A stretch of 64,000 nt of DNA, from the NCBI GenBank assembly GCA_018653315.1, contig JABIAL010000021.1, positions 3,029 through 67,028 on the forward strand, in the 5' to 3' direction. A program made the position numbers and the translations under genes. The notes below the pieces were generated by a model, which was not told where the DNA came from, ran no database searches, and worked only from the letters and a program-made list of their open reading frames with translations. Of this stretch, positions 4,846 through 59,153 are shown piece by piece; the stretch's first letter is position 1; each line of letters begins with the position of its first letter. This stretch comes from a bacterium (lineage in GTDB: Bacteria > Patescibacteriota > Patescibacteriia > UBA1558 > GWA2-36-10).

Positions 4846-4955
4846 GTAACCCACATTTTATTAACACCTTATTAACTATTGACCCGTTTAAGTAAAACTA
4901 AATTTATGGTATATTGTATGATATTGATTAAAAAACTACCAAAAAATCATAAAAT

Positions 4956-6323
4956 ATGAGTAATCACGATAAAAATTGGCAAAGTGTGTTAGGAGAACTG
5001 GAGCTTTTAATTAGCCGGGCTAATTTTACAACCTGGTTCAAAAACACTTTTATTTTTGAAACCGGTGAAAAAGAAGTGATTATTGGTGTGCCAAATGCCT
5101 TTACTAAGGTTTGGCTGGAAAAGAAGTACCATAAAAACATCGTAAAAGCTTTAGGAAACGTGTTATCAAAAAGTAATCTACAGGTTATCTACAGGGTAGC
5201 AAACCAAGATAATTCAACTAATGTTAGCAAAAAAACAATAAATCCTGTTAAAATATCTGAGCCACCTGTGAATAACTTTAATGAAAACAGAAGCTCTAAT
5301 CGCTTTGGTCTAAACCCTAAATATACCTTTCAAAGCTTTATTGTTGGCCCCGGTAATGAACTGGCTCAGGCAGCCGCTCAGGCAGCCGCTAAAAAACCAG
5401 GTGAATTATACAACCCCTTATTTATTTACGGTGGTGTTGGCTTAGGTAAAACCCATTTAGTACAGGCTGTTGGAAACTATCTTTTAGCTAAGGATAGCAC
5501 AAAAAAAATATTATACATCAATAGTGAAAAGTTTACTAATGACTTTATTTATGCTATTAAAAATGGCCGTACCGAACAATTTAAACAAAATTATCGTGAA
5601 GTTGATGTCTTATTAATAGATGATATTCAATTTATCGCTGGAAAAGAGCAGACTCAGGAAGAATTTTTCCACACTTTTAATGCTTTACACCAAAATAACA
5701 AACAAATAGTCATTTCCTCAGATAGACCGCCAAAGGCTATTCCGGCTATTGAAAGTCGTTTAATTTCTCGTTTTGAGTGGGGAATGATAGCTGATATCTC
5801 TTTTCCTGATCTAGAAACAAGAATGGCTATTTTAGAGGTAAAGTGCCAAGAAAAAAACTGTGTTCTAGACGAAGATATCATTACTTATATTGCTAAAAGT
5901 ATTCAAGATAATATTAGAGAGCTAGAAGGGGCACTTAATAGAATTATTGCCTTTCATCAATTAAACAACACTAAACCAAGCCTTGAGAGCGTCCGTTCTA
6001 TTTTGGGTGGTATTTCTGCCAACCCAAAACGAGCCGGATTAACTGTTAAAAAATTACTGAGCATTGTAATTGACTTTTATGGTATTTCTTTAGATGATAT
6101 TTTAGGTAGCAGTAGAAAAAGAGAATTAGTCACCCCTCGTCAAATAGCGATGTTTTTAATGCGAGAAGAGCTTAAATCGTCTTATCCTAGCATTGGACAG
6201 GGTTTAGGGGGTAGAGACCACACCACGGCGATGCATGCTTGTATAAAAATAACAAAGATCATCGATGTTGATGAAAAAATAAAAAATGACGTGGCTGTTT
6301 TACGCCAAAAAATGTATGAATAA
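4956..6323 (+). CDS. dnaA: chromosomal replication initiator protein DnaA
   Basis: 455 aa. Walker A GGVGLGKTHL, AAA+ box, and the C-terminal DNA-binding domain signature. Confidence 0.95.
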   Translation: MSNHDKNWQSVLGELELLISRANFTTWFKNTFIFETGEKEVIIGVPNAFTKVWLEKKYHKNIVKALGNVLSKSNLQVIYRVANQDNSTNVSKKTINPVKISEPPVNNFNENRSSNRFGLNPKYTFQSFIVGPGNELAQAAAQAAAKKPGELYNPLFIYGGVGLGKTHLVQAVGNYLLAKDSTKKILYINSEKFTNDFIYAIKNGRTEQFKQNYREVDVLLIDDIQFIAGKEQTQEEFFHTFNALHQNNKQIVISSDRPPKAIPAIESRLISRFEWGMIADISFPDLETRMAILEVKCQEKNCVLDEDIITYIAKSIQDNIRELEGALNRIIAFHQLNNTKPSLESVRSILGGISANPKRAGLTVKKLLSIVIDFYGISLDDILGSSRKRELVTPRQIAMFLMREELKSSYPSIGQGLGGRDHTTAMHACIKITKIIDVDEKIKNDVAVLRQKMYE

Positions 6324-6593
6324 ATCCCCTTAATAAGCTGTTAATAAACACTGGATAGAAGCTAAGTGCTTTGTTAATAAATAACGACTTATCAACACAC
6401 TTTTTTCACAAAGCAAAACTTATTCACATTTTCAAAAACATAAACACCACTAATCAACCGTTTATCCCAAGTTAAAATTCATCGTTTTGAATAAAAAAGT
6501 TTAACAAAATTAAATAAAACCCCACACTTATTAACATATCAACAGGCCTTACTACTACTACTATTTATATATAAATAACTAATATATAATTAT

Positions 6594-7688
6594 ATGCACT
6601 TAAGTTGCACACAAGAAAATCTAAATAAAGGACTAGGACTGGTCTCACATATTGCCAATAAAAATAGCAACCTACCAATCTTAAATAATGTTCTCTTAAA
6701 AGCAGGTAAGAACGGCTTAACTTTAGTTACGACTGATCTAGAGATAGGGATTAAGGTTTTTGTTAGAAGCAAGGTAGAGGAAGAGGGTAGTTTTACAGTA
6801 GCTGCTAAACTATTAAATGAATTTATAGGTTTATTGCCAAGAGAAAATATAAATATAGCATTAAAAGAAGATAATCTTTATATTAAAAGCCAAAACCACA
6901 AAACCAATATTAAAGGATTAGAGGCCGAAGACTTTCCACTTATTCCAGAGATCGAAAAAGAAAATGAAGTTGAATTAAGTATTACAGAATTTAAAACAGC
7001 CCTAAGCCAAACCGTATTCGCCGCTTCTTTGGATGGTTCTCGAGCAGAAATCAACGCTGTTAACTTTTGTTTTTCCAAAGATGAACTAATAATGGCAGCC
7101 ACAGATAGTTATCGTTTAGCCGAAAAAAGATTAAGTATAAACAATAGTCAGGAGAAGTCGTTAATTATTCCACTGAAAACAATTCAGGAATTATTAAGAA
7201 TCCTAAACGACCAAGCAGAGCAGAAATTAAAGCTTTATTTTAATGAAAATCAAATCATGTTTGTTTTTGATGGGGTGGAATTAATTTCTCGTGTAGTAGA
7301 AGGGAAGTATCCAGACTATCAACAAATTATACCAAGTGATTTTAGCACTACTGCAAAATGTGAAACAAACAAGCTTATTCCTGCTATAAAATCCGCTGCT
7401 TTGTTTTGTAAACAGGGCATAAATGACGTTCGCTTAAGTTTTGCTAAAAATGAAATTGTAATTGCCTCTGCTTCTTCTGCTGTTGGTGAAAATGTTATTA
7501 AAGTGCCAGCTGAGGTTACCGGTGATGAGAACGACATTGTTTTTAACTTTAGATATTTATTAGATGGCCTAAGCAACATTGGCAAACAAGAGGTTGTGTT
7601 TAATATTAATAACAACGCCTCACCTGGTTTGTTACAAGGTAAAAATAATAAAAACTATCTTTATTTGATTATGCCAATTAGACAATAA
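6594..7688 (+). CDS. dnaN: DNA polymerase III beta sliding clamp
   Basis: 364 aa with three-domain clamp architecture. Located immediately downstream of dnaA. Confidence 0.9.
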   Translation: MHLSCTQENLNKGLGLVSHIANKNSNLPILNNVLLKAGKNGLTLVTTDLEIGIKVFVRSKVEEEGSFTVAAKLLNEFIGLLPRENINIALKEDNLYIKSQNHKTNIKGLEAEDFPLIPEIEKENEVELSITEFKTALSQTVFAASLDGSRAEINAVNFCFSKDELIMAATDSYRLAEKRLSINNSQEKSLIIPLKTIQELLRILNDQAEQKLKLYFNENQIMFVFDGVELISRVVEGKYPDYQQIIPSDFSTTAKCETNKLIPAIKSAALFCKQGINDVRLSFAKNEIVIASASSAVGENVIKVPAEVTGDENDIVFNFRYLLDGLSNIGKQEVVFNINNNASPGLLQGKNNKNYLYLIMPIRQ

Positions 7689-11123: not shown

Positions 11124-11528
11124 TTAGTGGACCTCATTGCCCTTTCTGGTTGTCTCTGTTGCGTTGCCCAGAATAAGACCCAGAACAACACCCATGATAA
11201 AGCCCAGAATAAGACCCAGAATACCGCCTAGCATACCATCCAGAATAAGACCCAGAACCATACCTAGAGCGACACTTAGAATACCGCCTAGCATAATACT
11301 CAGAGCAGCACCTAGGGGGGCACCTGGAAACCTTATTAATATCCATAGGTTGGCATAGCTAAACCAGACTAAAAAGAAGAATGGTATAGTCATATGCTGA
11401 TGGAAGTTGATCATCCGAGCGGATACAGAGATGCTCTCAGGCAGGGGTAGCGAAAACATCAAATACGACCAGCTAGCCACTAGTAATCCAAAAACTACAC
11501 TACGCGGGGTCATTTTGTCCCAATTCAT
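11124..11528 (-). CDS. glycine-zipper (GxxxG-repeat) membrane protein, hypothetical
   Basis: 134 aa. C-terminal half is tandem GxxLG units (LGMVLGLILDGMLGGILGLILGFIMGVVLGLILG), encoded by ~12-nt periodic repeats. Confidence 0.45.
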   Translation of the reverse strand: MNWDKMTPRSVVFGLLVASWSYLMFSLPLPESISVSARMINFHQHMTIPFFFLVWFSYANLWILIRFPGAPLGAALSIMLGGILSVALGMVLGLILDGMLGGILGLILGFIMGVVLGLILGNATETTRKGNEVH

Positions 11529-11845
11529 GATGGGCTCCTAGAATTTAAACACACTAATGAAAATAACAATCAATATAGTAATATAGCACATAAAACATAT
11601 TTTGTCAATAGTATTTATGCTTATTTGTTAATTTTGTTAGTAAAAATAAGCTTTCTACGTGATTTTAGAGGATAAATGTGGATAACTTGAGGGTAAGTGA
11701 CTACTTTTGTGTATAAAAGAGCTGAAATTAGGGCAAAGTTTAAGATAATTTGACAAATAACAAAAAGTACATCTAGATTGTTTGCGCTAATGCTAGCTAA
11801 TAAGTTTAGAAAAATAAGAAAATTAGCAAATTTAGATACTTGTTA

Positions 11846-11874
11846 TTGACAAAGTCTATTTTTTCTTGTAATAT
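11846..11874 (+). promoter_or_regulatory. sigma70-like promoter ~160 bp upstream of rpoB
   Basis: TTGACA (11846-11851), 17-nt spacer, TAATAT (11869-11874). Confidence 0.45.
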
Positions 11875-12030
11875 ACACTCATGTTAATTTCCCTGACTAA
11901 CCAAGTTTAGTCTTAAATTAAACAAGCTGACCTCAAAAGTAAACGAGGTGAGTTTATTTTTTGCGCAAATTTTTTGTGATAAACAAAAAGTATCTCGAAA
12001 GTGCTTTTAAAAATTATTTTTTGAACTTCT

Positions 12031-15000
12031 ATGTCCCAAGTTAAAGCCCCAACTAAGACACGTCAATTTTTTACTAATTTACGAGAAGCTATCCCTCTAA
12101 CGGATTTAGTGGAAATCCAAAAAAAATCATACAACTGGTTTTTTAAAGAAGGCCTAAAGGAATTATTTGAGGAAATCTCTCCAATCACAGATTTTATTGG
12201 TCGTGATTTAGAATTATATTTATTAGATTATTATTTAGACGAGCCTAAGTTCGACGAACTTACTACTAAGTCTAAAAATATAACATATGAAGCACCACTT
12301 AGGGTAAAGGTGCGTTTGACTAACAAAAAAACCAACGAAGTTAAAGAGCAAGAAATTTATCTTGGTGATTTTCCAGTGATGACCGATCGTGGTACTTTTG
12401 TTATCAATGGTGTAGAGCGAGTAATTGTCTCACAATTAATTCGTAGCGCCGGTGTTTTCTTTACTTCACAAATTTTACGTGGTCGCCGTTATTACGGAGC
12501 CAAGATTATTCCTAATCGTGGAGCCTGGCTTGAAATTGAAACTGATGCCAATGGAATTATCTATGTAAAAATAGATCGTAAACGTAAAGTGCCCATCACA
12601 GCACTATTACGTGCTTTTGGTTATGATTCTGATGAAAAAATTACCGAATTATTCAAAGATATTGATACTCATCCAGAAGTAAGGTTTATTCAAAATACAC
12701 TTGCTAAAGATATTTCACACAATGAAGCAGAGGGTTTAAAAGAAGTTTATAAACGTGTCAGACCAGGAGACTTGGCTACGGTTGATAACGCTAGGTCTTT
12801 GATTCACTCGATGTTTTTTAATTTTGATCGTTATGATTTTAGTCGAGTTGGTCGTTATAAGATTAATGCTCGTTTTAGTTTAGATATTCCAAACAACAAA
12901 GAAACCAGGGTTTTACGTCGTGAGGATTTAATTTTGGTAATCGCTGAAATTGTTAAATTAAATTTATCTCAAGCAGATGCAGATGATATTGATCATTTGG
13001 GTAATCGTCGAGTACGGGCAGTTGGTGAATTAGTACAAAATAAATTTAGAGTTGGTTTAGCTAGAATGGAAAGAATCGTACGTGATCGTATGAGTACTTT
13101 GGATGTAAATAATATTAGTCCAAGTCAATTGATTAACGCCAGACCAGTTATTGGATCGATTAAAGAGTTTTTTATGAGCTCTCAATTATCTCAGTTCATG
13201 GATCAAGTAAATCCATTAGCCGAGTTGGAACATAAACGTCGTTTATCTGCCATGGGTCCCGGTGGTTTATCTCGTGAAAGAGCTGGCTTTGAAGTTCGTG
13301 ATGTACATCGTACTCACTATGGACGTATTTGTCCGATTGCTACTCCTGAAGGACCAAACATTGGTTTAGTTGGTCACCTAGCTGCTTACGCTAGAGTGAA
13401 TGATTTTGGTTTTATTGAAACTCCATTTAGAAAAGTTTTTCATGATGTAGACAATGATCCAAAGATGACTGCTGGTAAAATAGCCAGAGTAGGTATTAAA
13501 AATATTGTAAAAGCAGGTGAAGAAATTACAGATAAAATCGCTAAAGAATTAGCTAAAGATAAAGAGCTAGAAACAATTGCTATTAAACCAGTTGTTACTA
13601 ATGAAATTACTTACTTAGATGCTTTCGAAGAAGAGAGATATAATACCACCGCTGCTACTACACCAATTGATGAAAATGGGTATTTTATAAATGATTATGC
13701 AGAAATTAGAATCAATGGTGTACCTAGTTTTGATAAGGTAGAAAAAGTTGATTTATTTGACGTTGCGCCAAATCAAATTATTAGTATTGCTACTTCTTTG
13801 ATTCCGTTTTTAGAGCATGATGATGCGGTACGTGCTTTAATGGGAACAAACATGCAACGGCAAGCGGTGTCCCTGATTAGACCAGAGGCTCCTATTGTTG
13901 GTACCGGTATAGAAGCGCGGGCTGCCCAAGATTCTGGACAAGTGGTAGTAGCTAAAGAGGACGGAAAGGTTAGCTATGTTGATGGAAGTCGAGTAGAATT
14001 GACAGACAAAGACGGTGTGACAACTAATTATGATTTACAAAAGTTTTCTCGTTCCAATACCTCTACTAGTATGAATCAACATCCAATTGTAGATAAGGGT
14101 GATAAAATTAAAAAAAGTCAGCCAATTGCTGATGGAGCAGCTACCGATCAAGGAGAGTTAGCTCTTGGTCAAAATATGTTAGTAGCTTATATGACTTGGG
14201 ATGGTGGTAACTACGAAGATGCTATTTTGATTTCACAACGAGTAGTAAAAAGAGATAATTACACATCTATTAGTATTGAAGATTACTCTATTGATATTCG
14301 TGATACAAAACTTGGACCAGAACAAATTACCAGAGACATTCCAAACATCAGCGAAGAAAAATTAAAAGATTTAGATGAAGAAGGAGTTATTCGTATTGGT
14401 GCTAATGTTGGTTCTGGAGATATTTTAGTTGGTAAAATTACCCCAAAAGGTGAAACGGAATTATCAGCTGAAGAAAAACTATTAAGAGCCATCTTTGGTG
14501 AAAAGGCCAAAGATGTTCGTGATAGTTCACTTTATTTAAAACACGGAGAGCACGGTAAGGTTATTGATGTTAAGATTTTTTCTCGAGAAAATAGTGATCG
14601 ATTACCAGCTGGTGTAATTAAGAGCGTGCAGATAACCATTGCTCAATTACGTAAGATTCAAGTTGGCGATAAGATGGCCGGACGTCATGGTAATAAAGGT
14701 GTTATTTCTCGTGTCATTCCAGAAGCAGATATGCCATTTTTAGCAGACGGTACGCCAGTAGACATTGTTTTAAATCCACTTGGTGTTATTTCTCGTATGA
14801 ACTTAGGACAGTTGTTAGAAACTCATTTAGGTTTAGCAGCACGTACCTTGGGATACAAGGTAGCTAGCCCAGCCCTAAATGGTGTTAGTGAAGAAAAGAT
14901 TAGAGAAGAATTAGAAAAAGCAGGTTGGCCAGCCGACGGTAAGTTGCAACTTTATGATGGTCGTAATGGTGAAGCGTTCCACCATAAAACCACCACTGGT

Positions 15001-23736: not shown

Positions 23737-25164
23737 ATGTCAACAGCTAATAAAATATTTACTAACACTATTTGGCAGGTAGCTATTAGGGCTATCAGTA
23801 TTTTGATTGGGATAATAAATCTAGGTTTTATTACTCGTATTTTAGGAGCTACAAACTTTGGATTTTATACTACAATTTTTGCCTTTGTCCAAATGTTCAT
23901 GATTCTAGCTGATCTTGGTTTGTATTTAACCCTTTTAAGAGAGGTCTCTAGTACGGATTCTAAAAAAGATGAAACTAAAATAGTTAATAATATTTTTACT
24001 ATTCGTCTTGTATCCTCACTTATTTTATTATCTGCTGCTCCATTTGTAGTTCAACTATTCCCCTATGCGCCAGAAGTCAAAACTAACTTGATTTATTTTT
24101 TAATAGCTTTCTTTTTCCAAAGCCTTACTTCTACCTTGTCTGCTGTTTTTGCCAAAAAATTTGCTATGCCTAAAGTGGCCTTAGCAGATTTAATAAATAA
24201 GCTACTCTATTTAGGTATTTTGGGGTATTTATTTATTATGGGTGGTAAGCTGTCAGCGGTTTTATTGGGTAACTCTATTACACAGGTAATTGCTTTTATT
24301 ATTTTCTTTATTTTTTTACGTAAATATATAAAATTACGTTTTGCTTGGGATTTTATTTATTGGCGACAAGTAATGATTCAAACTTGGCCCTTGGCCTTAA
24401 CTGTGGTTTTAAATTTAGTTTATTTTAAGGCTGACACTTTAATTTTGTCTATTTTTGCCAGTCCTAAAGATGTAGGTTTATATGGTGCTCCTTATCGTAT
24501 TTTAGAAGTACTAACAACCTTTCCGCATATGTTTATGGGTTTAATTTTGCCTTTGTTTACTGCAGCTTGGTTGAAAAAAGACTTGTTTAAGTTACGTCAA
24601 ATTTATCAAAATTCTTTTGATTTTTTTGTTATGTTGACTATTGGTTTTATGATAGTCATCTGGCTAGCTAGTAGTTCTATTATGTCTGTTTTAGCGGGTT
24701 CTGAATTTATTGCCTCTGGACCAATTTTAAATATTTTGATTATTGCTACAACAGCTATTTATTTTGGTACGCTATTTACCTATTTAGTTGTAGCGATGTC
24801 TTTACAAAAAAAGATGATAAAATATTTTTTAATATCAGCCATCGTTGGTTTAGTGGGGTATTTTATTTTAATTCCAAAGTTTGGTTATTTAGCAGCAGCT
24901 TGGATGACAGTAGTAGTTGAAGTGATTATTTGGATATTTGCTTATTGGGTAGTAAAAAAGCATGTTAATTTAAAAACAGACATGACAGTTGTTTGGAAGA
25001 GCGGTGAGGCAGCTTTTGCAGCCTTGTTCGTTGGTTGGTTATTACATAATTTTCATCCATTAATCATGTCGGCGGTAGCCTTATTAGTTTATACTGCTTT
25101 ATTATATTTTTTAAAAGCAATCGATAAACAAGCAATTAAGCAATTACTTAACAAAGAAAGTTAA
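23737..25164 (+). CDS. Wzx-like oligosaccharide flippase (polysaccharide biosynthesis / MOP superfamily)
   Basis: 475 aa with about 12-14 TM helices and a Polysacc_synt-like N-terminus. Confidence 0.6.
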   Translation: MSTANKIFTNTIWQVAIRAISILIGIINLGFITRILGATNFGFYTTIFAFVQMFMILADLGLYLTLLREVSSTDSKKDETKIVNNIFTIRLVSSLILLSAAPFVVQLFPYAPEVKTNLIYFLIAFFFQSLTSTLSAVFAKKFAMPKVALADLINKLLYLGILGYLFIMGGKLSAVLLGNSITQVIAFIIFFIFLRKYIKLRFAWDFIYWRQVMIQTWPLALTVVLNLVYFKADTLILSIFASPKDVGLYGAPYRILEVLTTFPHMFMGLILPLFTAAWLKKDLFKLRQIYQNSFDFFVMLTIGFMIVIWLASSSIMSVLAGSEFIASGPILNILIIATTAIYFGTLFTYLVVAMSLQKKMIKYFLISAIVGLVGYFILIPKFGYLAAAWMTVVVEVIIWIFAYWVVKKHVNLKTDMTVVWKSGEAAFAALFVGWLLHNFHPLIMSAVALLVYTALLYFLKAIDKQAIKQLLNKES

Positions 25165-26456
25165 TGTTAGAAATTTTAGCTATAATTTGTTTGGGAGGAT
25201 TTTTACTGATAGCCAAGCGTAGTGTTGTCTGGGCCTTGGCGTTAATAATTTTATTGTTGCCTAGTTATTTATGGCGCCTAGATTTCTTAGGCTGGCCAAC
25301 AACCTTTTTGGAATTAATGATTGTTGGATTATTTATTTTTTGGTTAATTAAACAACAGCGACGACAAAAAATTAATTGGCGCCTAAGTGGTTTTGCTAAT
25401 AGGATAGCTAAACCATGGCGTTATTTCATATTAACTTGGTTATTGGTCAGTGTTATTGCTTTGATTTTTAATTTTAATTTATCAGCTCTTGGTTTATGGC
25501 GAGCATATTTTTTGGAACCAATTTTATTTTTATTAATATTTTTATACTCTGTTAAAAATAAAGAAGATCGACAAATTATATTTTATGGCCTAGGTGGTTT
25601 GGTTGTGTGGTTAGCTTTTGTTGCTATCTGGCAGAGTTTTACGGCCTGGAATTTACCAGCTGCTTATAATGAGCCTAATATTAAAAGGCTAACTGCAGTT
25701 TTTGCTTATCCTAATGCTTTGAGTTTATTGATCGCGCCTATTACGGCCTGGTTTACTGGTCTATGGCTAAGCAGTAAACATAAAAGTAAAGAGCTGGCTT
25801 ATTTAGGAGTAATCTTTTTAGGAATTTTATTATTAGTTTCCACCAAGAGCGAAGGAGCACTGTTGGCTTTTGGCTTTAGTTTATTATTTTATTTTTTCTT
25901 TGCCAAAATAGCCAATAAAAAGAAGTTGGCATTAGTTATAATTTTAATTCTAGCCATATTTTTGACACCTGCTAAAAATTATATTACTCAAGCTACAAAC
26001 GATATTTTACAGCCAAACTCGAATCAACATACAAGCTCTTTAGCTGTACGTAGTTTGCAGTGGCAGGAAACTACAGAATTATTACAGGATCATTGGCTGG
26101 TCGGAGCGGGTATTAATGGTTACCAAAAAATGATGGTAAATTACCATCAAATTACTTGGTTGGAAATATTTTTATATCCCCACAATATATTTTTGAATTT
26201 TTGGGTAGAATTAGGCTTCTTAGGTTTGCTACTTTTTATTACTTTGATGTCTTATTTAGCTAGAACGTGCTATGGGCTAATTAAAAATCAACATTATCTA
26301 GCCTGGGCCCTGACCTTGGCTTGGTTAACTTGGTTTGTTCATGGCTTAGTCGATGTGCCGTATTTTAAGAATGATTTAAGCGTTTTATTTTTTATATTAT
26401 TAGGACTTACTATACTAGCTGTTCGTGATAATAAATCCAACTCACGATTGTTATAA
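25164..26456 (+). CDS. O-antigen ligase/polymerase-like (Wzy_C family) membrane protein
   Basis: 430 aa polytopic protein with a large loop region in the C-terminal third, typical of the WaaL/Wzy fold. Confidence 0.5.
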   Translation: MLEILAIICLGGFLLIAKRSVVWALALIILLLPSYLWRLDFLGWPTTFLELMIVGLFIFWLIKQQRRQKINWRLSGFANRIAKPWRYFILTWLLVSVIALIFNFNLSALGLWRAYFLEPILFLLIFLYSVKNKEDRQIIFYGLGGLVVWLAFVAIWQSFTAWNLPAAYNEPNIKRLTAVFAYPNALSLLIAPITAWFTGLWLSSKHKSKELAYLGVIFLGILLLVSTKSEGALLAFGFSLLFYFFFAKIANKKKLALVIILILAIFLTPAKNYITQATNDILQPNSNQHTSSLAVRSLQWQETTELLQDHWLVGAGINGYQKMMVNYHQITWLEIFLYPHNIFLNFWVELGFLGLLLFITLMSYLARTCYGLIKNQHYLAWALTLAWLTWFVHGLVDVPYFKNDLSVLFFILLGLTILAVRDNKSNSRLL

Positions 26457-27801
26457 AATACAAGATCCCAAAAATATGAAAGATAGCTGGCGTGGTAATG
26501 TTGATTAACATTATCGCTAAAACGCTAGCTAATAAACCGAGATATAATTCTTGGTTTTTTGTTTGTTCAAAAACACGTTTCATTAAAAAGCCTAGTAAAA
26601 TTAAAGTAAATAGTAATCCAGCTAGTCCCCACTTAATCCAAATTTCGAACCAACCCCAATCAAAATGACGAGTGTTTATTTCATCAGTAATTACGCTCTG
26701 TCCCAAGCCTTGTCCCAAGATAGGCGCATCTTTTATCATGTCTACAATAGGCGGCAATAGCTCCATTCGGCTTTGTGAACTGACCTCTGTTTGGGGTGCG
26801 GTAATGCCACTAAATTTTATACCTAAAATTCCCCAGCCATTATCTGCACCTTGGCTGCTGACAATATTTATTATCGTAAATATACTAAAAATAATTAGAA
26901 TATTTAAAATAAGTATTTTAAACCAGCTTCTCCAGCTATTTTTATATTTCAAAATTAATAAACCGAGTAGTAACCCCAAAATATAAGCGCGAGAAATATT
27001 TAAACTAAAAATTAAACCACTTAACAATAATAAAACTAAATAAAAATTATGTTTATACTTTAACCAAGCCGTAGAGATGATCAAAATCACGGGCACCAGT
27101 AACAATTGCTCAGGAAAAACTATGCGCCAGAAATAAATGCTAGAGGCAGTGATTTTAGCTAAGGCAAAATCGCGCAACCAATTATAATAAGGTTGATGAA
27201 GTACAGCTAGATCAGTAGTAAATAAAATAAAATTAAATAAAGTCCAGGAAGCACTACTTATTAACCAGACAAAAAGCAATCGCGCTAAAAAGATTTTGTT
27301 ATTTTTATTTTTCCAAAAGTGATAAAGAGGAAAGATTAAGAAAATAAAAATTATCGGAATCAAATCCTGAATGATTAGTGGCAGAGGATTATGATTTTGC
27401 CAACCAATCAATGCAGCGGCAAATATGATGACAAAAAATATTGATAAGCTATAAACTATTTTTTTTGGCAGCTGTAATAATTCTTTGTGTTTTAGACTAT
27501 AAGAAAAATATAAAATCAAGAAAACTATAGTTAATAAAGTTCTCAATGACATGTCAGTTAATTCAAAAAAATGTCCTACGCCACCAAGTAGATATTCAGC
27601 TAATAAAAACTGTAAGGCATAATGCCAATTTTTATTAAATAAGTAAATTAGTATTATTAAAGCACTAATAACAACTAGGCCTTGTAAAAAAACAGCATCT
27701 CTTAAAGTAAAAGATAATAGTCTAACAGAAAAAAAGGCTAAAATTAGCCAATAAACTTGAGTAGAAATTATCTTTGCTTTTATATTGGAAAATGCTAACA
27801 T
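26410..27801 (-). CDS. O-antigen ligase/polymerase-like (Wzy_C family) membrane protein, paralog
   Basis: 463 aa polytopic protein. Its 3' end overlaps that of the preceding gene by 47 nt (convergent). Confidence 0.5.
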   Translation of the reverse strand: MLAFSNIKAKIISTQVYWLILAFFSVRLLSFTLRDAVFLQGLVVISALIILIYLFNKNWHYALQFLLAEYLLGGVGHFFELTDMSLRTLLTIVFLILYFSYSLKHKELLQLPKKIVYSLSIFFVIIFAAALIGWQNHNPLPLIIQDLIPIIFIFLIFPLYHFWKNKNNKIFLARLLFVWLISSASWTLFNFILFTTDLAVLHQPYYNWLRDFALAKITASSIYFWRIVFPEQLLLVPVILIISTAWLKYKHNFYLVLLLLSGLIFSLNISRAYILGLLLGLLILKYKNSWRSWFKILILNILIIFSIFTIINIVSSQGADNGWGILGIKFSGITAPQTEVSSQSRMELLPPIVDMIKDAPILGQGLGQSVITDEINTRHFDWGWFEIWIKWGLAGLLFTLILLGFLMKRVFEQTKNQELYLGLLASVLAIMLINITTPAIFHIFGILYFITIVSWIYYHEQLV

Positions 27802-30476: not shown

Positions 30477-31337
30477 ATGAAAAAAGTTCGTAAAGCAATT
30501 ATTGCTGTGGCTGGTTCCGGAACAAGATTGTTGCCAGCTACTAAATCAATGCCAAAAGAAATGTTGCCCATTGTTGATAAACCAATTATTCAACTTGTAG
30601 TTGAAGAGCTGGTTGCTGGAGGGATAGAAGATATAATTTTGGTTACAAAATGGGACAAAAAACCACTCGAAGACCATTTTGATTATTCATGGGCTTTAGA
30701 ACACGATTTAGCTGAATCGGGTAAGATGGCCAAGCTAAAAGAGATTAGAAAAATTTCTGAAATGGCAAATTTTATCTATATCCGCCAAAAAGGACCCTAT
30801 GGCAATGGTACCCCTGTTTTATCTGCAGCCAGTTTAGTTCAAGATGAGCCATTTATGTATGTTTGGGGAGATGATTTAGTTAAATCAAAAACATCATTTG
30901 CCAAACAAATGATTGATGACTATAACGAAACAGGCCATTTAATGATCGGGGTACAAAAAGTGCCACGTAATCAAGTTGATAGGTATGGAATCGTTAGTAT
31001 TAAAGATAGAAAAACCATGCAATTAGACGGCATCATTGAGAAGCCAAGTATAAAAGAAGCACCTTCTCAGCTAGCTGATTTTGGTCGGATGATTTTGAAT
31101 CAAGACATCATAGAAATACTTAAGAAGACAAGATTAGGAAAAGGCAATGAATTATGGATTGTTGATGCTATCCGTGACTACATTAAAGCGGGCGGAGAGT
31201 TTTACGCTAAAGAAGTACAAGATGGAGAATGGCTAACTACTGGGGATCCATGGAATTTGTTAAAAGCGAATTTAGAATATGCAAGTGACAGAAAAGATTT
31301 AAAGACTTTATTAAAGAGGTATTTAAAAAATTTATAA
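30477..31337 (+). CDS. galU: UTP--glucose-1-phosphate uridylyltransferase
   Basis: 286 aa. AGSGTRLLPATKSMPKEMLPIVDKP N-terminal signature. Confidence 0.85.
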   Translation: MKKVRKAIIAVAGSGTRLLPATKSMPKEMLPIVDKPIIQLVVEELVAGGIEDIILVTKWDKKPLEDHFDYSWALEHDLAESGKMAKLKEIRKISEMANFIYIRQKGPYGNGTPVLSAASLVQDEPFMYVWGDDLVKSKTSFAKQMIDDYNETGHLMIGVQKVPRNQVDRYGIVSIKDRKTMQLDGIIEKPSIKEAPSQLADFGRMILNQDIIEILKKTRLGKGNELWIVDAIRDYIKAGGEFYAKEVQDGEWLTTGDPWNLLKANLEYASDRKDLKTLLKRYLKNL

Positions 31338-31340
31338 GCT

Positions 31341-32702
31341 ATGCCTAGACTGCGAATTCTTACTATTATTTTATTTGGAGTGTTCATCATGACCACTGGT
31401 TTTGGTTGTAAGCAAAGCATTACCAATAAAGAAGAGTTTAAGCCAATTTCTTTAGAGTATTGGGGAGTTTGGGATACGCCGGGGCAGATGGCTAGTGTAA
31501 TCAATGCTTATCAGGACACCCATCCAACTATTAAGGTGAGATACAAAAATTTTCGTTATGATGAGTATGAACAAAAATTATTAGAAGCAGCCTGGGAAGA
31601 CAGAGTGCCTGATTTGTTCATGATCCCTGTTTCTTGGTTACCAAAATATCAAGAGCGTTTACAGGCAATTCCAAAAAGCGTTAAAATTCCTATTTTAGAA
31701 ATGCAGGGCACTATTAAAAAAGAAGCCGTGCCAGTGTTAAAAACTATTAATAGTTTATCTTTGCGTGATATTAAAGATCGTTATGTTAGTGTTGTTTATG
31801 ATAATGTAATTAGAGAAGGAGAAATTTACGGCTTACCATATTCTGTTGATTCATTGGTTACTTTTTATAATTCAGATTTATTAACAGCTTCAAATATTCC
31901 CGAACCAATAGAAGATTTTCATGATTTAGTTGAACAGATTCAAAAAGATGGTCTTTCTAAGATAGGGACTGGCAATAGAATTATACAGGCTGGTGTAGCC
32001 ATGGGTGGCACAGATAACATTCCTCGTTTTTTTGATATCTTGTCCAGTATTATGATGCAAAATGATGTTGAGCTGAAAGGGAGTAATTTTAATCCCTTAC
32101 AAAGTAAGGACTCAACACGGTACATGGCAGAGGCAATTGGTTTTTATACAGATTTTGCTAATCCTAATAAGTCAGTATTTTCTTGGGATGATAGTTTACC
32201 AGACGCCTTTGAAATATTTACACAAGGTAAGTTAGCTTATTTTTTTGGTTATAGTTATCATGCTGACGAATTACGTAAACGAGGCGTCCAGTTTGATTGG
32301 GATATAACTAATTTTCCTAAAACCAGAGGTGCAGAGGGTGATAAATATTATAGCAATTATTGGATAAACGTTGTTCCGAAAAAATCAAAAAATAAAGACG
32401 CAGCTTGGAATTTTATTCAAAGTGCAACTAGTAAAGATTTGGTGGTTAATTATTTAGATACTAATAAAAAACCAACAGCCTTAAGAGCCTTAATAAAAGA
32501 TCAGTTAGAAGATGATGAGGTGAGAGTTTTTGCTTCACAAGTTTTAGCCGCAGATAATTGGTACAAGGGTTATGATCTTACAGCAGCAGAAATGTATATG
32601 GCAGATTTTATAGAAGACCTATTATCAGGAGAGCTTAATCTTGATGAAAGTGGTTTAGGGTTTTTGGTTCAGCGCATTCGCCGTACCTATCAAGCACGAT
32701 AA
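31341..32702 (+). CDS. ABC-type extracellular solute-binding lipoprotein (family 1, sugar/oligosaccharide type), orphan
   Basis: 453 aa. Lipobox-like TTGFGC after a signal peptide. No permease or ATPase genes are adjacent. Confidence 0.55.
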   Translation: MPRLRILTIILFGVFIMTTGFGCKQSITNKEEFKPISLEYWGVWDTPGQMASVINAYQDTHPTIKVRYKNFRYDEYEQKLLEAAWEDRVPDLFMIPVSWLPKYQERLQAIPKSVKIPILEMQGTIKKEAVPVLKTINSLSLRDIKDRYVSVVYDNVIREGEIYGLPYSVDSLVTFYNSDLLTASNIPEPIEDFHDLVEQIQKDGLSKIGTGNRIIQAGVAMGGTDNIPRFFDILSSIMMQNDVELKGSNFNPLQSKDSTRYMAEAIGFYTDFANPNKSVFSWDDSLPDAFEIFTQGKLAYFFGYSYHADELRKRGVQFDWDITNFPKTRGAEGDKYYSNYWINVVPKKSKNKDAAWNFIQSATSKDLVVNYLDTNKKPTALRALIKDQLEDDEVRVFASQVLAADNWYKGYDLTAAEMYMADFIEDLLSGELNLDESGLGFLVQRIRRTYQAR

Positions 32703-32714
32703 TTTTTTAATAAT

Positions 32715-33677
32715 ATGAAAAAAGTATTAAACTTAGCAATTTTATTTTCTTTGTTAGCTATGCCAAGTATGGCTAGTGCTGGATTTTTGGATAAGTTAAG
32801 TTGCGTAAAAGGGGGGCTAAATTGTAGTCTTGATGAAGTAGCAACTAGTTTTGTTTTACTTACAAAATTTTTAATTAGCGCAATTGGTGTGGCAGCTCTA
32901 TTGTATTTTATTTGGGGTGGCGTCCAATTACTTACCTCTTATGGTAACATGGAAAGGATAAAGCGCGGACAACAAATAATGTGGCACACTATGTTTGCCA
33001 TGGTAATTACTTTTAGTAGTTTTTTATTAGTTGAATTTTTTATTAATGATATTTTAAATGCTGATGACCAGGTAGTTGCTATGTGCGGTACCGAGCCAAT
33101 ACACAAACAATGTAATGAGCATGAAAAAAATTATGTTTGCACTGGGCATCAATTTCCAATAGAGCAAGATGCTTACAATGGTTTATGTGTGCCAAAATGC
33201 CAATTACAAAATTGGCTAGAAGAAGATACTTGGTTGTGTCTTGATAAAAGTATCGCTGAAGATGTTGTTGGAGATGGTAAATTTGATGGTTGTTCAAATC
33301 CAAATGACCTATGTGTTAATGCAAATAAACTACCCATTAAAGAGTTAATTCAAGAGACTAATTCTTTAAATATTGATATTAATATAACTGAGTACGTTGG
33401 TTGTTGTGTGAATGGCATACAATCATGTATTACTAAAGAATCAGAAGTGGCTTGTCATAATCTTGATCCTAATGCTGCTTGGTTTAATGTTTCTTGTGAC
33501 GAGGTGGGAATGTGCCAAGATGGTTATCATGCTGATCCTGGTTGTTGCCTTGGTATTCAAGATGGTAATGTTGTAGAGTGTTTGGAAATAGAAATAGGGG
33601 TGTGTGCATGGGATGATGGTATAACAGCAGAATTTTATGCTGACACCACTTGTCCACCTGAACCGCCATGTTTATAA
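32715..33677 (+). CDS. VirB2/TrbC-like two-TM pilin-type domain fused to a ~200-aa Cys-rich extracytoplasmic domain
   Basis: 320 aa. Signal peptide and two TM helices with a GG-x-x-LL-TS-x-G loop resembling the four downstream paralogs, then more than 20 cysteines in the C-terminal 200 aa. Confidence 0.45.
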   Translation: MKKVLNLAILFSLLAMPSMASAGFLDKLSCVKGGLNCSLDEVATSFVLLTKFLISAIGVAALLYFIWGGVQLLTSYGNMERIKRGQQIMWHTMFAMVITFSSFLLVEFFINDILNADDQVVAMCGTEPIHKQCNEHEKNYVCTGHQFPIEQDAYNGLCVPKCQLQNWLEEDTWLCLDKSIAEDVVGDGKFDGCSNPNDLCVNANKLPIKELIQETNSLNIDINITEYVGCCVNGIQSCITKESEVACHNLDPNAAWFNVSCDEVGMCQDGYHADPGCCLGIQDGNVVECLEIEIGVCAWDDGITAEFYADTTCPPEPPCL

Positions 33678-33692
33678 TTTAATTCTTATAAT

Positions 33693-34043
33693 ATGTTAAA
33701 CAAAAAGAAAAATATTTTATTTACCTTGTTTTTATTGAGCGTACCTTGGTGTGTCCAAGCGGGCACGGCACTACATAATCCATTAGAGGGTAGTGCTAGT
33801 GATTTTCCAACATTAATTGGTGGTGTTATTAGAGGAATGTTGGGTGTAGTGGGGGCAGTAGCCTTAATTATGATTGTTATCGGAGGTATTACTTGGATGA
33901 CTTCATCTGGTAATGCTGATAGGGTACGCCGTGGCAAAGACACATTGGTTTGGGCGGTCATTGGTTTAACTGCTATATTTTTAAGTTACGCAGTTGTTAA
34001 TTTTATATTTGATGCCGTTGTTAGAGGTGGCTCAGGATCTTAG
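33693..34043 (+). CDS. VirB2/TrbC-like (T4SS-pilin-like) small two-TM protein, paralog 2
   Basis: 116 aa. Signal peptide, TM1, loop GGITWMTSSGNADRV, TM2. Confidence 0.5.
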   Translation: MLNKKKNILFTLFLLSVPWCVQAGTALHNPLEGSASDFPTLIGGVIRGMLGVVGAVALIMIVIGGITWMTSSGNADRVRRGKDTLVWAVIGLTAIFLSYAVVNFIFDAVVRGGSGS

Positions 34044-34044
34044 G

Positions 34045-34073
34045 TTGAATAAATGACATTTTTGTTTTATAAT
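34045..34073 (+). promoter_or_regulatory. sigma70-like promoter for paralog 3
   Basis: TTGAAT, 17-nt spacer, TATAAT (34068-34073). A strong AAGGGGGTGA Shine-Dalgarno sits before the ATG at 34115. Confidence 0.45.
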
Positions 34074-34114
34074 AATTGTATGAAATTATGTTTTTATAGA
34101 AAGGGGGTGAAAAA

Positions 34115-34462
34115 ATGAACAAAATAATTACAAGTTTATTATTGTTAGCTCCAATGGCCGCTTCAGCTGCTACCAATCCGTTTGGTGTTGATGATTTAAC
34201 ATCTACAGGCTTGGGTACACAAGATTTAAAGACAACCATTGCTAGTATTATTAATGTTGTTTTAGGATTCTTAGGAATCATCGCTACTTTAATTATTCTT
34301 TTAGGTGGTTTTAAATGGATGACCTCTCAAGGTAGTTCTGAAAAAGTAGATGAGGCTAAAAAACTTATCGGTGCTGGTGTTGTAGGATTAGTCATAGTAT
34401 TAGCAGCTTATGCTATTGCTAGATTTGTTTTGACAAATGTTTATGAGGCAACAACCGCATAA
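34115..34462 (+). CDS. VirB2/TrbC-like small two-TM protein, paralog 3
   Basis: 115 aa. Loop GGFKWMTSQGSSEKV. Confidence 0.5.
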   Translation: MNKIITSLLLLAPMAASAATNPFGVDDLTSTGLGTQDLKTTIASIINVVLGFLGIIATLIILLGGFKWMTSQGSSEKVDEAKKLIGAGVVGLVIVLAAYAIARFVLTNVYEATTA

Positions 34463-34559
34463 CAGGCTTATTATAGTCTAGACTATAGTAGGTCATGCAA
34501 GTGACCTACTAAAGTGTAGATTAAAATAGTACCGGTATAATAAATCAAAAAACAAACAG

Positions 34560-34904
34560 ATGAACAAAATAATTACAAGTTTATTATTACTAGCTCCGAT
34601 GGCCGCTTCAGCTGATCTTAGTGATCTTGGTTATGATGATTTAGATTCTGTACATTTGGGTACGCAAGATCTAAAGACAACTATTGCTAGTATTATTAAT
34701 GTAGTTTTAGGATTCTTAGGAATCATCGCTACTTTAATTATTCTTTTAGGTGGTTTTAAATGGATGACCTCTCAAGGTAGTACTGAAAAAGTAAGCGAAG
34801 CTAAAAATCTGATCGGCGCTGGTGTTGTAGGATTAGTCATAGTATTAGCAGCTTATGCTATTGCTAGATTTGTTTTACGAGAAGTTTATCAAGCAACTTA
34901 TTGA
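34560..34904 (+). CDS. VirB2/TrbC-like small two-TM protein, paralog 4 (near-identical recent duplicate of paralog 3)
   Basis: 114 aa, about 95 percent nucleotide identity to paralog 3 except for a ~50-nt segment encoding the mature N-terminus. Confidence 0.5.
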   Translation: MNKIITSLLLLAPMAASADLSDLGYDDLDSVHLGTQDLKTTIASIINVVLGFLGIIATLIILLGGFKWMTSQGSTEKVSEAKNLIGAGVVGLVIVLAAYAIARFVLREVYQATY

Positions 34905-34949
34905 TATATTTTAGCATAGTTTATATTAAGTATTTTTAACAAAATAAAC

Positions 34950-35324
34950 ATGAAACATAAAATATTTTTTACATTTTTGTTATTATTACCAATGCAAGCA
35001 GCTGCGTCAGCAGCGCAGGATGGATTAGATGCTGCCGCTGCCCAGGCTGGACTTAATACTGATCGTAGTGTTATTGATATGATTGCCATTGTGATTAATG
35101 CAATTTTGAGCTTGTTAGCAATGATTTTTATTGTGTTGATTATCTTAGGTGGTTTTCGTTGGATGACTTCAGCTGGAAATGCTACAAAGGTAGATTCTGC
35201 TAAACAGACTATATCAAATGCAGTTATTGGTTTAGTAATAGTTGTGGCTGCTTATGCTATTGCTACATTTGTATTAGGAGCAGTAGTTGGTAGTACTAGT
35301 GGCGGTGGAGTTACACAACCTTAA
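34950..35324 (+). CDS. VirB2/TrbC-like small two-TM protein, paralog 5
   Basis: 124 aa. Loop GGFRWMTSAGNATKV and a Gly/Ser-rich C-terminus. Confidence 0.5.
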   Translation: MKHKIFFTFLLLLPMQAAASAAQDGLDAAAAQAGLNTDRSVIDMIAIVINAILSLLAMIFIVLIILGGFRWMTSAGNATKVDSAKQTISNAVIGLVIVVAAYAIATFVLGAVVGSTSGGGVTQP

Positions 35325-35344: not shown

Positions 35345-35376
35345 AACCCGCGTTTGTTTTCAAACGCGGGTTTTTG
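35345..35376. terminator. bidirectional rho-independent terminator
   Basis: AACCCGCGTTTG-tttt-CAAACGCGGGTT flanked by an A-run and a T-run. Separates the pilin-like array from the convergent lipoprotein gene. Confidence 0.7.
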
Positions 35377-35390
35377 ATTCTTAGAGACGA

Positions 35391-36038
35391 TTACTCGATG
35401 CTAATCACCCAATCAACGAGCCGCCCGTTTAACTCGGCATCCTTTTTAATGTTATTGATGCGAGTTACATATTTCATCTTCCGGTTTTGGGAAGCATTGA
35501 TTGGCTGGTAATAAATGGTGATATTACCAGGTGTCATAGCGGTCATCTCGCTAACCTGGCCGACATTCAGAACACCATATTGATGTCCTTTACTGTCCCA
35601 GATACGACACTTCCAGCGTGTCGAATTGATGATTACACCACTTTGCAACACTATGTTGCGTAATAGCATCTCATCAATCCTGACGACCTGTACACCACCC
35701 CATCTGGCGGTGCGCTTGATCGGTGCCACAATTTCTTCGCTACTCCAACCATTTTCCTCCCACGTTTTGACCAGAATAGTGATCTGATCTCTTCTGGCGA
35801 TTGATTCACTGTGAGAGCATCCTGTGTTGAGTTCCATATAATGCATTCCTGGTTCTTGTTTGATGCGCACCATATAGCGTTCATCTTCGCTGGTGTTTTC
35901 AAATCTCCACTCAGATTTTTTTTCATCATAGTCTTCTCCACCATGATAGGCGGGTCGGACTGTTCCGGCGCAATTACTCAAAATCAGCATCATTGCTAAT
36001 AATGAACAAAAAGCCACCATTTTTTTCAGCGTTTTCAT
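35391..36038 (-). CDS. lipoprotein, hypothetical (GC-richer than surroundings)
   Basis: 215 aa. Signal peptide with lipobox LSNCAG. No recognisable domain. The gene looks about 10 points GC-richer than its neighbours by eye. Confidence 0.45.
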   Translation of the reverse strand: MKTLKKMVAFCSLLAMMLILSNCAGTVRPAYHGGEDYDEKKSEWRFENTSEDERYMVRIKQEPGMHYMELNTGCSHSESIARRDQITILVKTWEENGWSSEEIVAPIKRTARWGGVQVVRIDEMLLRNIVLQSGVIINSTRWKCRIWDSKGHQYGVLNVGQVSEMTAMTPGNITIYYQPINASQNRKMKYVTRINNIKKDAELNGRLVDWVISIE

Positions 36039-58189: not shown

Positions 58190-58645
58190 TTAAAATACAG
58201 GAAGTACAATGTCACCGCAACCTGTGGATGGAGCACAAAGAATAAATTCACCAGGAGAGCTGTCTATGAGGTGAATTGACAGTACGTAATCTTGATTGGC
58301 GCTAGTTCCTACATTATTCCATTCCCAGCCATCGGCTGGTGGAGGCCAATTTTGCTCGCCACTGCAAATGGATTTATCAATTGCTGGTATTTTTGCTGGA
58401 CCACCGTCATACAAATCACAATCTGGGCAAAGCGCTTTGTCATCATATGCACATAAGATCAGAATAGGCTTAATGACGCTTACGATTTGTTTCATGGCTC
58501 CTCGTCTAGCTTTAGCTCTAGCTGAATTAACACCAATCACACCGACACTAGTAATAATACCAATGATAGCTATAACCACTAATAACTCAACCAGAGTGAA
58601 TCCTAATAAGTTTTTCTTTTTATTTTTATATTTCATATTAAGCAC
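58190..58645 (-). CDS. type IV pilin / pseudopilin with Cys-rich C-terminal domain
   Basis: 151 aa. Class III prepilin leader with cleavage motif LLGFTLVELLVVIAIIGI. Confidence 0.7.
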   Translation of the reverse strand: MLNMKYKNKKKNLLGFTLVELLVVIAIIGIITSVGVIGVNSARAKARRGAMKQIVSVIKPILILCAYDDKALCPDCDLYDGGPAKIPAIDKSICSGEQNWPPPADGWEWNNVGTSANQDYVLSIHLIDSSPGEFILCAPSTGCGDIVLPVF

Positions 58646-59153
58646 ATGTTCCAGTTACCTTACAGTTATTATTGCAGCAATCAAAATCTATTGAGCAAGC
58701 CTTGGTTGATCCAGCGCAAGCACAAGTTACATCTATTCCTTCTCCGCAATTAGATTCAGTGCAATATATATATTCGTCTGCGTCTGATTTTTTAATTTCA
58801 TAACAAAATTGACCAGTTTGATAAGTTGATTTTGATTTTTGATAAATATAATCATCAAAACTCGCCCAACGCCAACTGTTTAAAAAGTTCCAACACAAAT
58901 ATTCAGGAGGACCTGGTGTATTCGTGCCATTGCATTGTGTTCCAGCGCATTGTAATTCTGAATTACTATCTAAACAAAGCATGGCCATGGTCTGCATGTC
59001 TTTCATTTGAGTTACCACCTTGGTCTTTTCTGCTTTATCGATAGCTGAACGGACATTTATAACACTAACACTGGTCAGAATGCCAATAATGGCAATAACA
59101 ACTAGTAATTCTACTAGAGTGAAACCTAATAAGTTTGTATTTTTATTTTTCAT
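58638..59153 (-). CDS. type IV pilin with Cys-rich C-terminal domain
   Basis: 171 aa. Prepilin motif LLGFTLVELLVVIAIIGIL, and at least 15 Cys in the globular head. Confidence 0.7.
   Translation of the reverse strand: MKNKNTNLLGFTLVELLVVIAIIGILTSVSVINVRSAIDKAEKTKVVTQMKDMQTMAMLCLDSNSELQCAGTQCNGTNTPGPPEYLCWNFLNSWRWASFDDYIYQKSKSTYQTGQFCYEIKKSDADEYIYCTESNCGEGIDVTCACAGSTKACSIDFDCCNNNCKVTGTCA

Follow-up and report, generated by a model that had tools for sequence, protein, structure and literature searches.

A conserved origin-proximal operon of Patescibacteria combines a solute-binding-fold lipoprotein, a Cys-rich lead pilin and tandem VirB2-like pilins

Introduction

A 64,000-nucleotide stretch of contig JABIAL010000021.1 (assembly GCA_018653315.1; hereafter the window), which belongs to a metagenome-assembled genome (MAG) of Patescibacteria, carries at positions 32715-35324 five consecutive same-strand genes for pilin-like proteins, designated here P1 to P5, with open reading frames (ORFs) exactly as delimited in a first-pass annotation of this DNA. 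The locus is a chromosomal origin-proximal operon with the order (galU), solute-binding protein (SBP), Cys-rich lead pilin and four short pilins. It is a member of the already published class of Patescibacteria VirB2 arrays and represents in this class an undescribed, strongly conserved sub-architecture, of which three features appear to be new, namely the SBP as first gene of the module, the long Cys-rich first pilin, and the absence of VirB4 within 10 kb in 160 related loci. With a probability of about 0.5, the encoded proteins are subunits of a pilus or surface filament which, together with a carbohydrate-binding partner, would serve host contact and would be assembled by a type IV secretion system (T4SS) encoded elsewhere.

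Patescibacteria are monoderm, host-dependent bacteria that make up a large share of uncultivated diversity. In “Ca. Southlakia epibionticum” an essential series of predicted pilins is located inside the T4SS cluster (Wang et al. 2023, PMC10633639). In Quinonero-Coronel et al. 2025 study (PMC12102498) 3,035 genomes were searched with the PF04956 and PF18895 models, and VirB2-like pilins were found in 1,948 VirB4-positive assemblies, near virB4 in 1,135 only, while 441 arrays of 2-11 pilins were described in 383 assemblies, many of them not near virB4. An array was defined there as at least two VirB2-like genes, in tandem or with one non-pilin gene between them, in a Patescibacteria genome; the maximum reported identity of paralogues in arrays was 54%, and the T4SS genes tended to be located toward dnaA. 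A 2025 review considered that, among monoderms, the Patescibacteria T4SS stands alone in that it may make conjugative-type pili, and the function of this T4SS and its pilins was called “completely unknown” (PMC11665869). With five consecutive pilin genes the present locus is an array in the sense of the above definition, and since such arrays, including those far from virB4, had already been published (PMC10633639, PMC12102498), the initial view of the locus as a novel type of system had to be given up.

The operon is of interest because it ties VirB2-like pilins to a lipoprotein with a carbohydrate-binding fold and to a disulfide-rich lead subunit, apart from VirB4, and in this way offers a candidate ligand-binding component and a candidate tip or adhesin subunit.

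Family assignment and predicted fold of the pilins

Each of the five proteins possesses a leader, a polar segment of 15-25 residues, and then two hydrophobic helices, the first of them long, which are joined by a short basic loop, so that the traits of a VirB2-type pilin, that is, a predicted cleavable signal peptide, two hydrophobic helices, and a short basic loop, are present, and the signal peptide with two transmembrane (TM) segments described previously was found in all five. The leaders are of the Sec type and end in ASA in P1, P3, P4, and P5 and in VQA in P2; together with the SBP, all six envelope proteins of the operon bear Sec-type leaders. The conserved loop motif, GG-x-x-W-M-T-S-x-G-[NS]-x-x-[KR]-V, was originally attributed to all five members and is carried by P2-P5, the corresponding sequence of P1 being degenerate (GGVQLLTSYGNMERI). 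In the hidden Markov model (HMM) alignment of 617 related pilin ORFs from 160 loci both Gly residues are conserved at ~100% and the W, M, and T residues at 73-81%, and therefore the motif is regarded as a true family signature and not as a chance similarity. Pairwise identity among P1-P5 is 19-48%, with the exception of 86% for P3 and P4. An identical P5 protein is encoded on 23 contigs.

The Pfam gathering cut-offs are 26.6 bits for PF18895 (T4SS_pilin) and 27.9 bits for PF04956 (TrbC/VirB2). The former is passed by P2-P5 (35-42 bits), and P1 remains below it with 16.4 bits; the latter is passed by P3 and P4, with P2 just under the cut-off and no match for P1 and P5 (individual scores are given in Table 1). 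Among the aligned relatives PF18895 was matched in 44/44 and PF04956 in 17/44 (E < 0.001). According to Pfam alone P1 is not a member of PF18895; the family HMM does match it (43.7 bits, E = 9e-12), and the P1 homologues P0046-49 are PF18895-positive. The NCBIfam model NF045849 (Mbov_0395, pilin-like conjugal transfer protein of a Mycoplasma integrated conjugative element) gave 13-38 bits and its cut-off of 40 was not reached. These profile scores, which agree with the initial VirB2/TrbC-like assignment, support the classification of P1-P5 as VirB2/TrbC-type pilin homologues of a Patescibacteria family. The JGI names given to some relatives (“TRAP-type C4-dicarboxylate transport small permease,” “cytochrome bd subunit 2”) and the single DctQ and Cyt_bd matches among the relatives were rejected as noise produced by hydrophobic helices.

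The AlphaFold2 model of P5, built from 44 sequences, consists of a helix at residues 41-72, a turn, and a helix at residues 78-117, with a predicted local distance difference test (pLDDT) score of 93-96 over most of the hairpin, and the pilins are shown by modelling to adopt a predicted helical hairpin. The expected similarity to known pilin structures was not recovered, since the Foldseek comparison of the P5 model with PDB gave nothing significant, the best matches being a SipB fragment, ATP synthase subunit c, and CnrX, all with E > 1 (best E ~1). A hairpin of only two helices gives Foldseek too little to discriminate by. In the profile search of PDB sequences VirB2 (8cue) was matched at E = 1.4 only; the top matches of this search, designed “Pizza” repeats, were discarded as spurious because the loop motif alone was aligned. 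Because PDB searches are uninformative for so simple a fold, pilin homology rests on profile scores and not on structure.

The lead pilin and its Cys-rich extension

The four short members of 114-124 residues and a first member fused to a large Cys-rich domain were correctly recognized from the beginning. P1 contains 20 Cys within its last 200 residues, and the positions of these residues are conserved in its homologues. Across related loci the lead pilins have a median length of 217 aa versus 135 aa for the later pilins, and at least four Cys are found in 77% of lead pilins versus 4% of later ones. The proximal sub-domain of the extension, with ~8 Cys, is common to the lead pilins of 26 loci, and the distal part is found in 10 loci only. 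Since the extension had just 8 matches among 1.84e9 representative proteins, all of them proteins of ~300 aa with the extension in the same position, and P1 itself had 5 homologues in a set of 5.8 billion proteins, the extension is, as judged by these comparisons, a putative fast-evolving ectodomain exclusive to lead pilins. It would be extracellular if P1 follows the VirB2 topology with both termini outside, and the conserved Cys residues fit with such a location. The AlphaFold2 model of P1, for which 6 sequences were available, was poor (mean pLDDT 52.7, with the C-terminal 110 residues < 40).

Duplication and diversification of the short pilins

P4 is a recent duplicate of P3, with signal peptides identical at the protein level. 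Residues 19-36, which form the mature N-terminus, show 16 nonsynonymous and 4 synonymous differences, corresponding to a dN/dS of ~1.3, the counts being small, and in the hairpin core dN/dS is ~0.17. Within the limits of these small counts the pattern is that expected if an exposed tip diversifies while the scaffold that carries it is constrained. The module loci contain between 1 and 11 pilin copies, and divergence among the paralogues is high.

P3 is the only gene of the array preceded by a strong Shine-Dalgarno-like sequence (GGGGGTG, 5-6 nt before ATG), and a promoter-like TTGAAT-17-TATAAT element is found at 34045-34073, just past the P2 stop, in the interval 34044-34114. As predicted from sequence, P3 may be the major subunit, with the highest expression of the five.

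The solute-binding lipoprotein and conservation of the operon

The gene directly upstream of the array encodes a lipoprotein that passes the cut-offs of PF01547 and PF13416 and has weak PDB and NCBIfam matches to sugar SBPs; by these profiles it is classified as a divergent carbohydrate-type SBP_bac_1 protein. Its lipobox-like motif is G-F-G-C (G-x-G-C in its conserved form), with G20, G22, and C23 invariant, and a lipobox-like motif is present in 92/109 SBP orthologues. The first-pass annotation placed the array between an orphan solute-binding lipoprotein and a GC-rich lipoprotein; both neighbours are present, and the conservation described below indicates that the SBP is neither an orphan nor a bystander.

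In the SBP-seeded scan one genome per GTDB species was taken, which gave 280 relatives, and the best 80 of these 280 loci were analysed; all 80 belong to Patescibacteria MAGs (Nomura-, Uhr-, Buchanan-, Falkow-, and Kuenenbacteria and “Parcubacteria”). A pilin gene directly follows the SBP in 72/75 orthologue loci with at least 600 nt available downstream, often with an overlap of -4 or -8 nt, and where at least 3 kb was available, three or more pilins follow in 53/63 loci, with a median of five and a maximum of 11. In the reciprocal direction, the pilin-seeded scan of JGI metagenomes with a query alignment of 10 sequences revealed an SBP orthologue directly 5' of the pilins in 29/38 loci with enough upstream sequence. 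In relatives with pilins at 66%, 44%, and 42% identity the order of SBP, long pilin, and short pilins is retained even where all other flanks differ. The array homologues and syntenic loci all come from Patescibacteria MAGs, the synteny spans hundreds of genomes, and the module of SBP, long Cys-rich pilin, and 3-10 short pilins is kept across at least two Patescibacteria classes. Among the relatives with the module are the closed or nearly closed sequences OZ246408.1 (a chromosome of 1.0 Mb, with the module at ~91-112 kb) and JACKFO010000002.1 (842 kb). The SBP is the conserved first gene and the most conserved partner of the pilin array, an association that appears to be new. In both PMC12102498 and PMC10633639 neither a solute-binding protein nor a Cys-rich lead pilin is mentioned, and the terms “solute,” “substrate-binding,” and “ABC” have 0 occurrences in the published text on Patescibacteria arrays (PMC12102498). 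Full-text literature searches, whose coverage was incomplete, returned nothing on the combination of SBP and pilins, and the word “unreported” is therefore provisional.

It is rather unlikely that the SBP is an ordinary binding protein of an ATP-binding cassette (ABC) transporter with its permease elsewhere, the adjacency reflecting inherited gene order or co-regulation and the pilins alone being T4SS pilus genes. Such an explanation agrees with the clear SBP_bac_1/SBP_bac_8 fold signature and sugar-SBP relatives and with the synteny of galU and further genes for envelope sugars: in 67/101 related loci a GalU-like gene of the same orientation lies directly 5' of the SBP, the median gap being 1 nt. 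However, the SBP-pilin adjacency is kept in 96% of loci, although SBP identities range between 76% and 36% and the flanking genes vary, no other SBP neighbour exceeding ~66% of loci; stop/start overlaps are frequent; and no ABC permease or ATPase for the SBP was found in the window and no conserved cluster of this type near the SBP in the 80 loci.

The array was initially supplied with its own promoter, which did not stand up. Because the gaps are only 3 nt between galU and the SBP and 12 nt between the SBP stop and the P1 start, and promoter-like sites occur at the level of chance (20 found versus 22.4 +/- 4.7 expected), the array is considered as the distal part of a longer operon, with no evident promoter of its own. 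This operon is closed by an intrinsic-terminator-like hairpin which, as an A-run precedes and a T-run follows it, is predicted to be bidirectional, as was stated earlier. The lipoprotein-like gene behind it is kept 3' of the array in the 8 closest relatives only and therefore is placed outside the conserved module.

Several variants of the locus were observed. In L038 the pilin array is present twice, at 4879-7238 (-) and 11415-13774 (+), as a perfect mirror image flanking the SBP with identical HMM scores, which points either to an inverted duplication or to an artefact of assembly. In L027, L031, L035, L045, L046, and L071 an opposite-strand insert of 1.3-5 kb separates the lead pilin from the remaining array and encodes a GT2 glycosyltransferase and proteins of 530-550 aa without a Pfam family; the arrays of L117, L129, L132, and L167, which lack the SBP, share this split organization. 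Many MAGs that serve as GTDB representatives and are entitled “uncultured Gammaproteobacteria bacterium” (L012, L017, L021, L023, L025, L072, and others) carry the Patescibacteria-specific module and synteny and look mislabelled.

Proposed function and relation to VirB4

The pilins would be exported by the Sec pathway and inserted into the membrane as hairpins, and by analogy with VirB2 and TraA and according to the positive-inside rule, cleavage by signal peptidase I would leave both ends outside, with the basic signature loop (R/K-W-M-T-S-x-G-N-x-x-K-V-x-x-A-K) on the cytoplasmic side. Pilins would then be drawn from this membrane pool and polymerised to build a thin pilus or a surface filament through which the host cell is contacted; the motor of this assembly would most probably be a T4SS (VirB4/TrsD/VirB3/VirB6) whose genes lie at another place in the genome. 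The short paralogues may represent alternative or mixed major subunits with diversifying exposed N-termini; P1 would put its disulfide-rich ectodomain outside as a minor subunit, at the tip or base or as an adhesin; and the membrane-anchored SBP-fold lipoprotein may bind a carbohydrate (a glycan on the host surface or else a released sugar) and work with the filament. The filament interpretation is supported by the profile scores, the hairpin model, the topology and motif, the published Southlakia series and arrays, the genomes with both a distal array and VirB4, the SBP-pilin coupling, the Cys enrichment of lead pilins, the fast-evolving exposed segments combined with a conserved hairpin, and the position near dnaA.

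A number of observations weigh against this interpretation, most of them concerning the machinery. In agreement with the first-pass annotation, no Pfam domain of VirB4, VirB6/TrbL, or VirD4 was detected in any window ORF of at least 120 aa, and the sole FtsK/HerA-type ATPase of the window, with its 4TM, alpha, and gamma domains, is a genuine FtsK. VirB4, VirB6, VirB3, and TrsD were likewise absent from the window extended by ~16 kb on matching contigs (~10 kb to the left and ~6 kb to the right). Within +/-10 kb a VirB4-like gene was found in 0/160 related loci, screened by Walker-A motif and size with Pfam on the neighbours. In all of these searches only FtsK, SMC, ComM, UvrA-like, FtsH-like, and DnaA were encountered, and linkage to VirB4 or channel subunits, as is typical of VirB2, was seen neither at the locus nor in its relatives. 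Six of the 10 array-bearing ABY1-class assemblies cross-referenced with Table S1 of PMC12102498, all of them Uhrbacteria of 0.8-1.2 Mb, have the entry “Presence of VirB4: No,” and for one of these six, GCA_000993535.1, the matches listed in Table S3 of the same study are two VirB2 and one T4CP only. Pili have not been observed in any such lineage, fold searches cannot separate a pilin hairpin from other helical hairpins, and the SBP ligand and the contact between SBP and pilins are purely inferred.

A less probable explanation is that the operon encodes an envelope system independent of T4SS, in which the hairpins would stay in the membrane or self-assemble from it without VirB4, perhaps serving as oligomeric anchors, as a surface lattice, or as a conduit, and would capture or import host carbohydrate together with the SBP and the Cys-rich lead subunit. 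The lack of VirB4 linkage in all 160 loci and the VirB4-negative Uhrbacteria count in its favour, as does the fact that the tightest partner of the pilins is the SBP, with overlaps resembling translational coupling. A further argument comes from L137 (9998-20301) and L144 of the JGI/ENA metagenome contigs, where a 606-aa protein with a Big_5 Ig-like domain starts with the T4SS_pilin hairpin and the pilin HMM also matches the 2,831-aa ORF that follows; these giant proteins imply that the pilin hairpin can act as a plain membrane anchor. On the other hand, the negative entries for VirB4 can be explained by incompleteness of MAGs or by a divergent VirB4, and the variation from 1 to 11 divergent copies fits pilin variation better than a transporter of fixed stoichiometry. 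To our knowledge, no case of VirB2-type proteins that function in the absence of VirB4 has been described. Genomes that combine a distal VirB2 array with a VirB4 cluster are, moreover, among the matches listed in Table S3 of PMC12102498, for example GCA_000993875.1 (genes 218-222 versus 646-651) and GCA_000993845.1, and in the former the VirB4/TrsD/VirB3 cluster has its own pilin besides the distal array. It is tentatively suggested that the SBP-coupled operon could be a distinct VirB4-independent envelope system of ABY1/Paceibacteria-type Patescibacteria, recognizing or tapping the host surface.

Among the Uhrbacteria matches listed in Table S1 of PMC12102498, 11/24 are VirB4-negative despite a size of ~1 Mb, and the SBP-pilin module is present in both VirB4-positive and VirB4-negative Uhrbacteria of this table. 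The occurrence of the module in both types of genomes provides a clean comparative test of whether the pilins need a T4SS, and if they do not, the reading of “T4SS pilin” annotations in genomes of the candidate phyla radiation would change.

Genomic context

The window represents the dnaA-proximal chromosome of a low-GC (33.8%) Patescibacteria MAG, with GC skew climbing from the dnaA region, and the array is located on the leading strand 28 kb from dnaA. The organism is present in marine samples (ERZ27237643, HAWL17). Besides the operon (Table 1) it contains dnaA, dnaN, ruvA, FemAB, Mur ligase, rpoB, rpoC, ftsK, recA, Wzx/Wzy, CMAS, galU, and YebC genes, as well as ruvC, glycogen synthases, TyrRS, PBP1, truB, holA, polA, type IV pilin-like genes, MgsA, and trigger factor. 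FemAB, N_methyl pilins, and small housekeeping operons make this content typical of Patescibacteria.

Table 1. Features of the pilin operon and its immediate 3' neighbour (positions in the window)
Feature	Position	Strand	Description
GalU-like UTP-glucose-1-phosphate uridylyltransferase	30477-31337	+	Pfam NTP_transferase; NCBIfam galU 279 bits (cut-off 326.8)
SBP_bac_1 solute-binding-fold lipoprotein, carbohydrate type	31341-32702	+	PF01547 87 bits; PF13416 82 bits
P1, lead pilin	32715-33677	+	320 aa; signal peptide, divergent VirB2-like hairpin, ~200-aa Cys-rich extension
P2, short pilin	33693-34043	+	116 aa; PF18895 42.5 bits; PF04956 26.6 bits
P3, short pilin	34115-34462	+	115 aa; PF18895 36.4 bits; PF04956 30.0 bits
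P4, short pilin	34560-34904	+	114 aa; PF18895 35.4 bits; PF04956 29.4 bits
P5, short pilin	34950-35324	+	124 aa; PF18895 36.8 bits; PF04956 no match
Intrinsic-terminator-like hairpin, closes operon	35345-35372		12-bp stem with 7 GC pairs; 4-nt loop
Lipoprotein-like gene	35391-36038	-	215 aa; GC 43.8% (window 33.8%); no Pfam or NCBIfam family

In this housekeeping context it is highly improbable that the array is a remnant of an integrated conjugative element or a set of unrelated small membrane proteins, for instance holins or proteins for bacteriocin immunity. The sub-threshold similarity to NF045849 (34-38 bits versus the cut-off of 40) is the point that recalls such elements, but integrase, relaxase, and toxin genes are absent from the window, the GC content is that of the host genome, the synteny extends over hundreds of genomes, the hairpin core is under purifying selection, and the Pfam pilin matches are above threshold. 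On context these readings were rejected as effectively refuted.

Upstream of the operon a Wzx-type flippase gene (23737-25164) and two Wzy_C (O-antigen-ligase-like) genes form an envelope-glycan block, syntenic 5' of the pilin operon in ~25 related loci; the two Wzy_C genes, at 25164-26456 (+) and 26410-27801 (-), are convergent with an overlap of 47 nt. A pair of adjacent type IV pilin-like genes with the N_methyl motif at 58190-59153 (-) belongs to a separate pilus system of the window. The gene at 63064-63990 (-), which overlaps the end of the trigger-factor gene by ~40 nt, encodes a protein of 308 aa with a signal peptide, an external domain of ~130 aa, and ~5 C-terminal TM segments; its consideration as a VirB6-like protein found no support, with no Pfam match even at E = 0.1.

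Comparison with known systems

The locus is most similar to the published Patescibacteria arrays (PMC12102498, PMC10633639), with which it shares tandem PF18895/PF04956 genes, 2-11 per array and of low pairwise identity, a chromosomal and often origin-proximal location, the lack of a relaxase, and a monoderm host. It differs from the Southlakia series, where the pilins are within the T4SS cluster, in being at least 30 kb from any VirB4, and from the published arrays in the fixed order of SBP lipoprotein, Cys-rich lead pilin, and short pilins and in one paralogue pair, P3/P4, whose identity is above the maximum reported for such arrays.

VirB2 of the Agrobacterium T-pilin, TrbC of RP4, and TraA of F also possess a cleaved signal peptide, two hydrophobic helices, and a short basic loop, with both termini predicted to be outside in the present proteins, and PF04956 is above threshold for two copies here. 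Unlike in these systems, the host is a monoderm, VirB4, VirB5, and VirB6 are not linked, several paralogues are present, one of them with a 200-aa Cys-rich ectodomain, and an SBP is the operon partner; no sign of cyclisation or acetylation is known for the present pilins.

SBP-fold proteins connected with T4SS include the PrgZ/TraC pheromone-binding lipoproteins of enterococcal plasmids, where PrgZ is a peptide binder of the OppA type, and the ChvE sugar sensor of Agrobacterium vir induction, a sugar binder of the Peripla_BP type acting via VirA. The likeness consists in a solute-binding-fold protein linked to a T4SS or pilus and to the sensing of molecules of a partner cell. The difference is that the present SBP is a divergent SBP_bac_1 protein of carbohydrate type, co-encoded with the pilins, with no adjacent sensor kinase or permease.

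Finally, the amplification of VirB2 in the T4SS of Bartonella and Anaplasma (cited in PMC12102498) concerns diderm intracellular animal pathogens with complete VirB systems, unlike the locus described here, yet it shares with this locus the divergent tandem pilin copies and the variation in their exposed parts.

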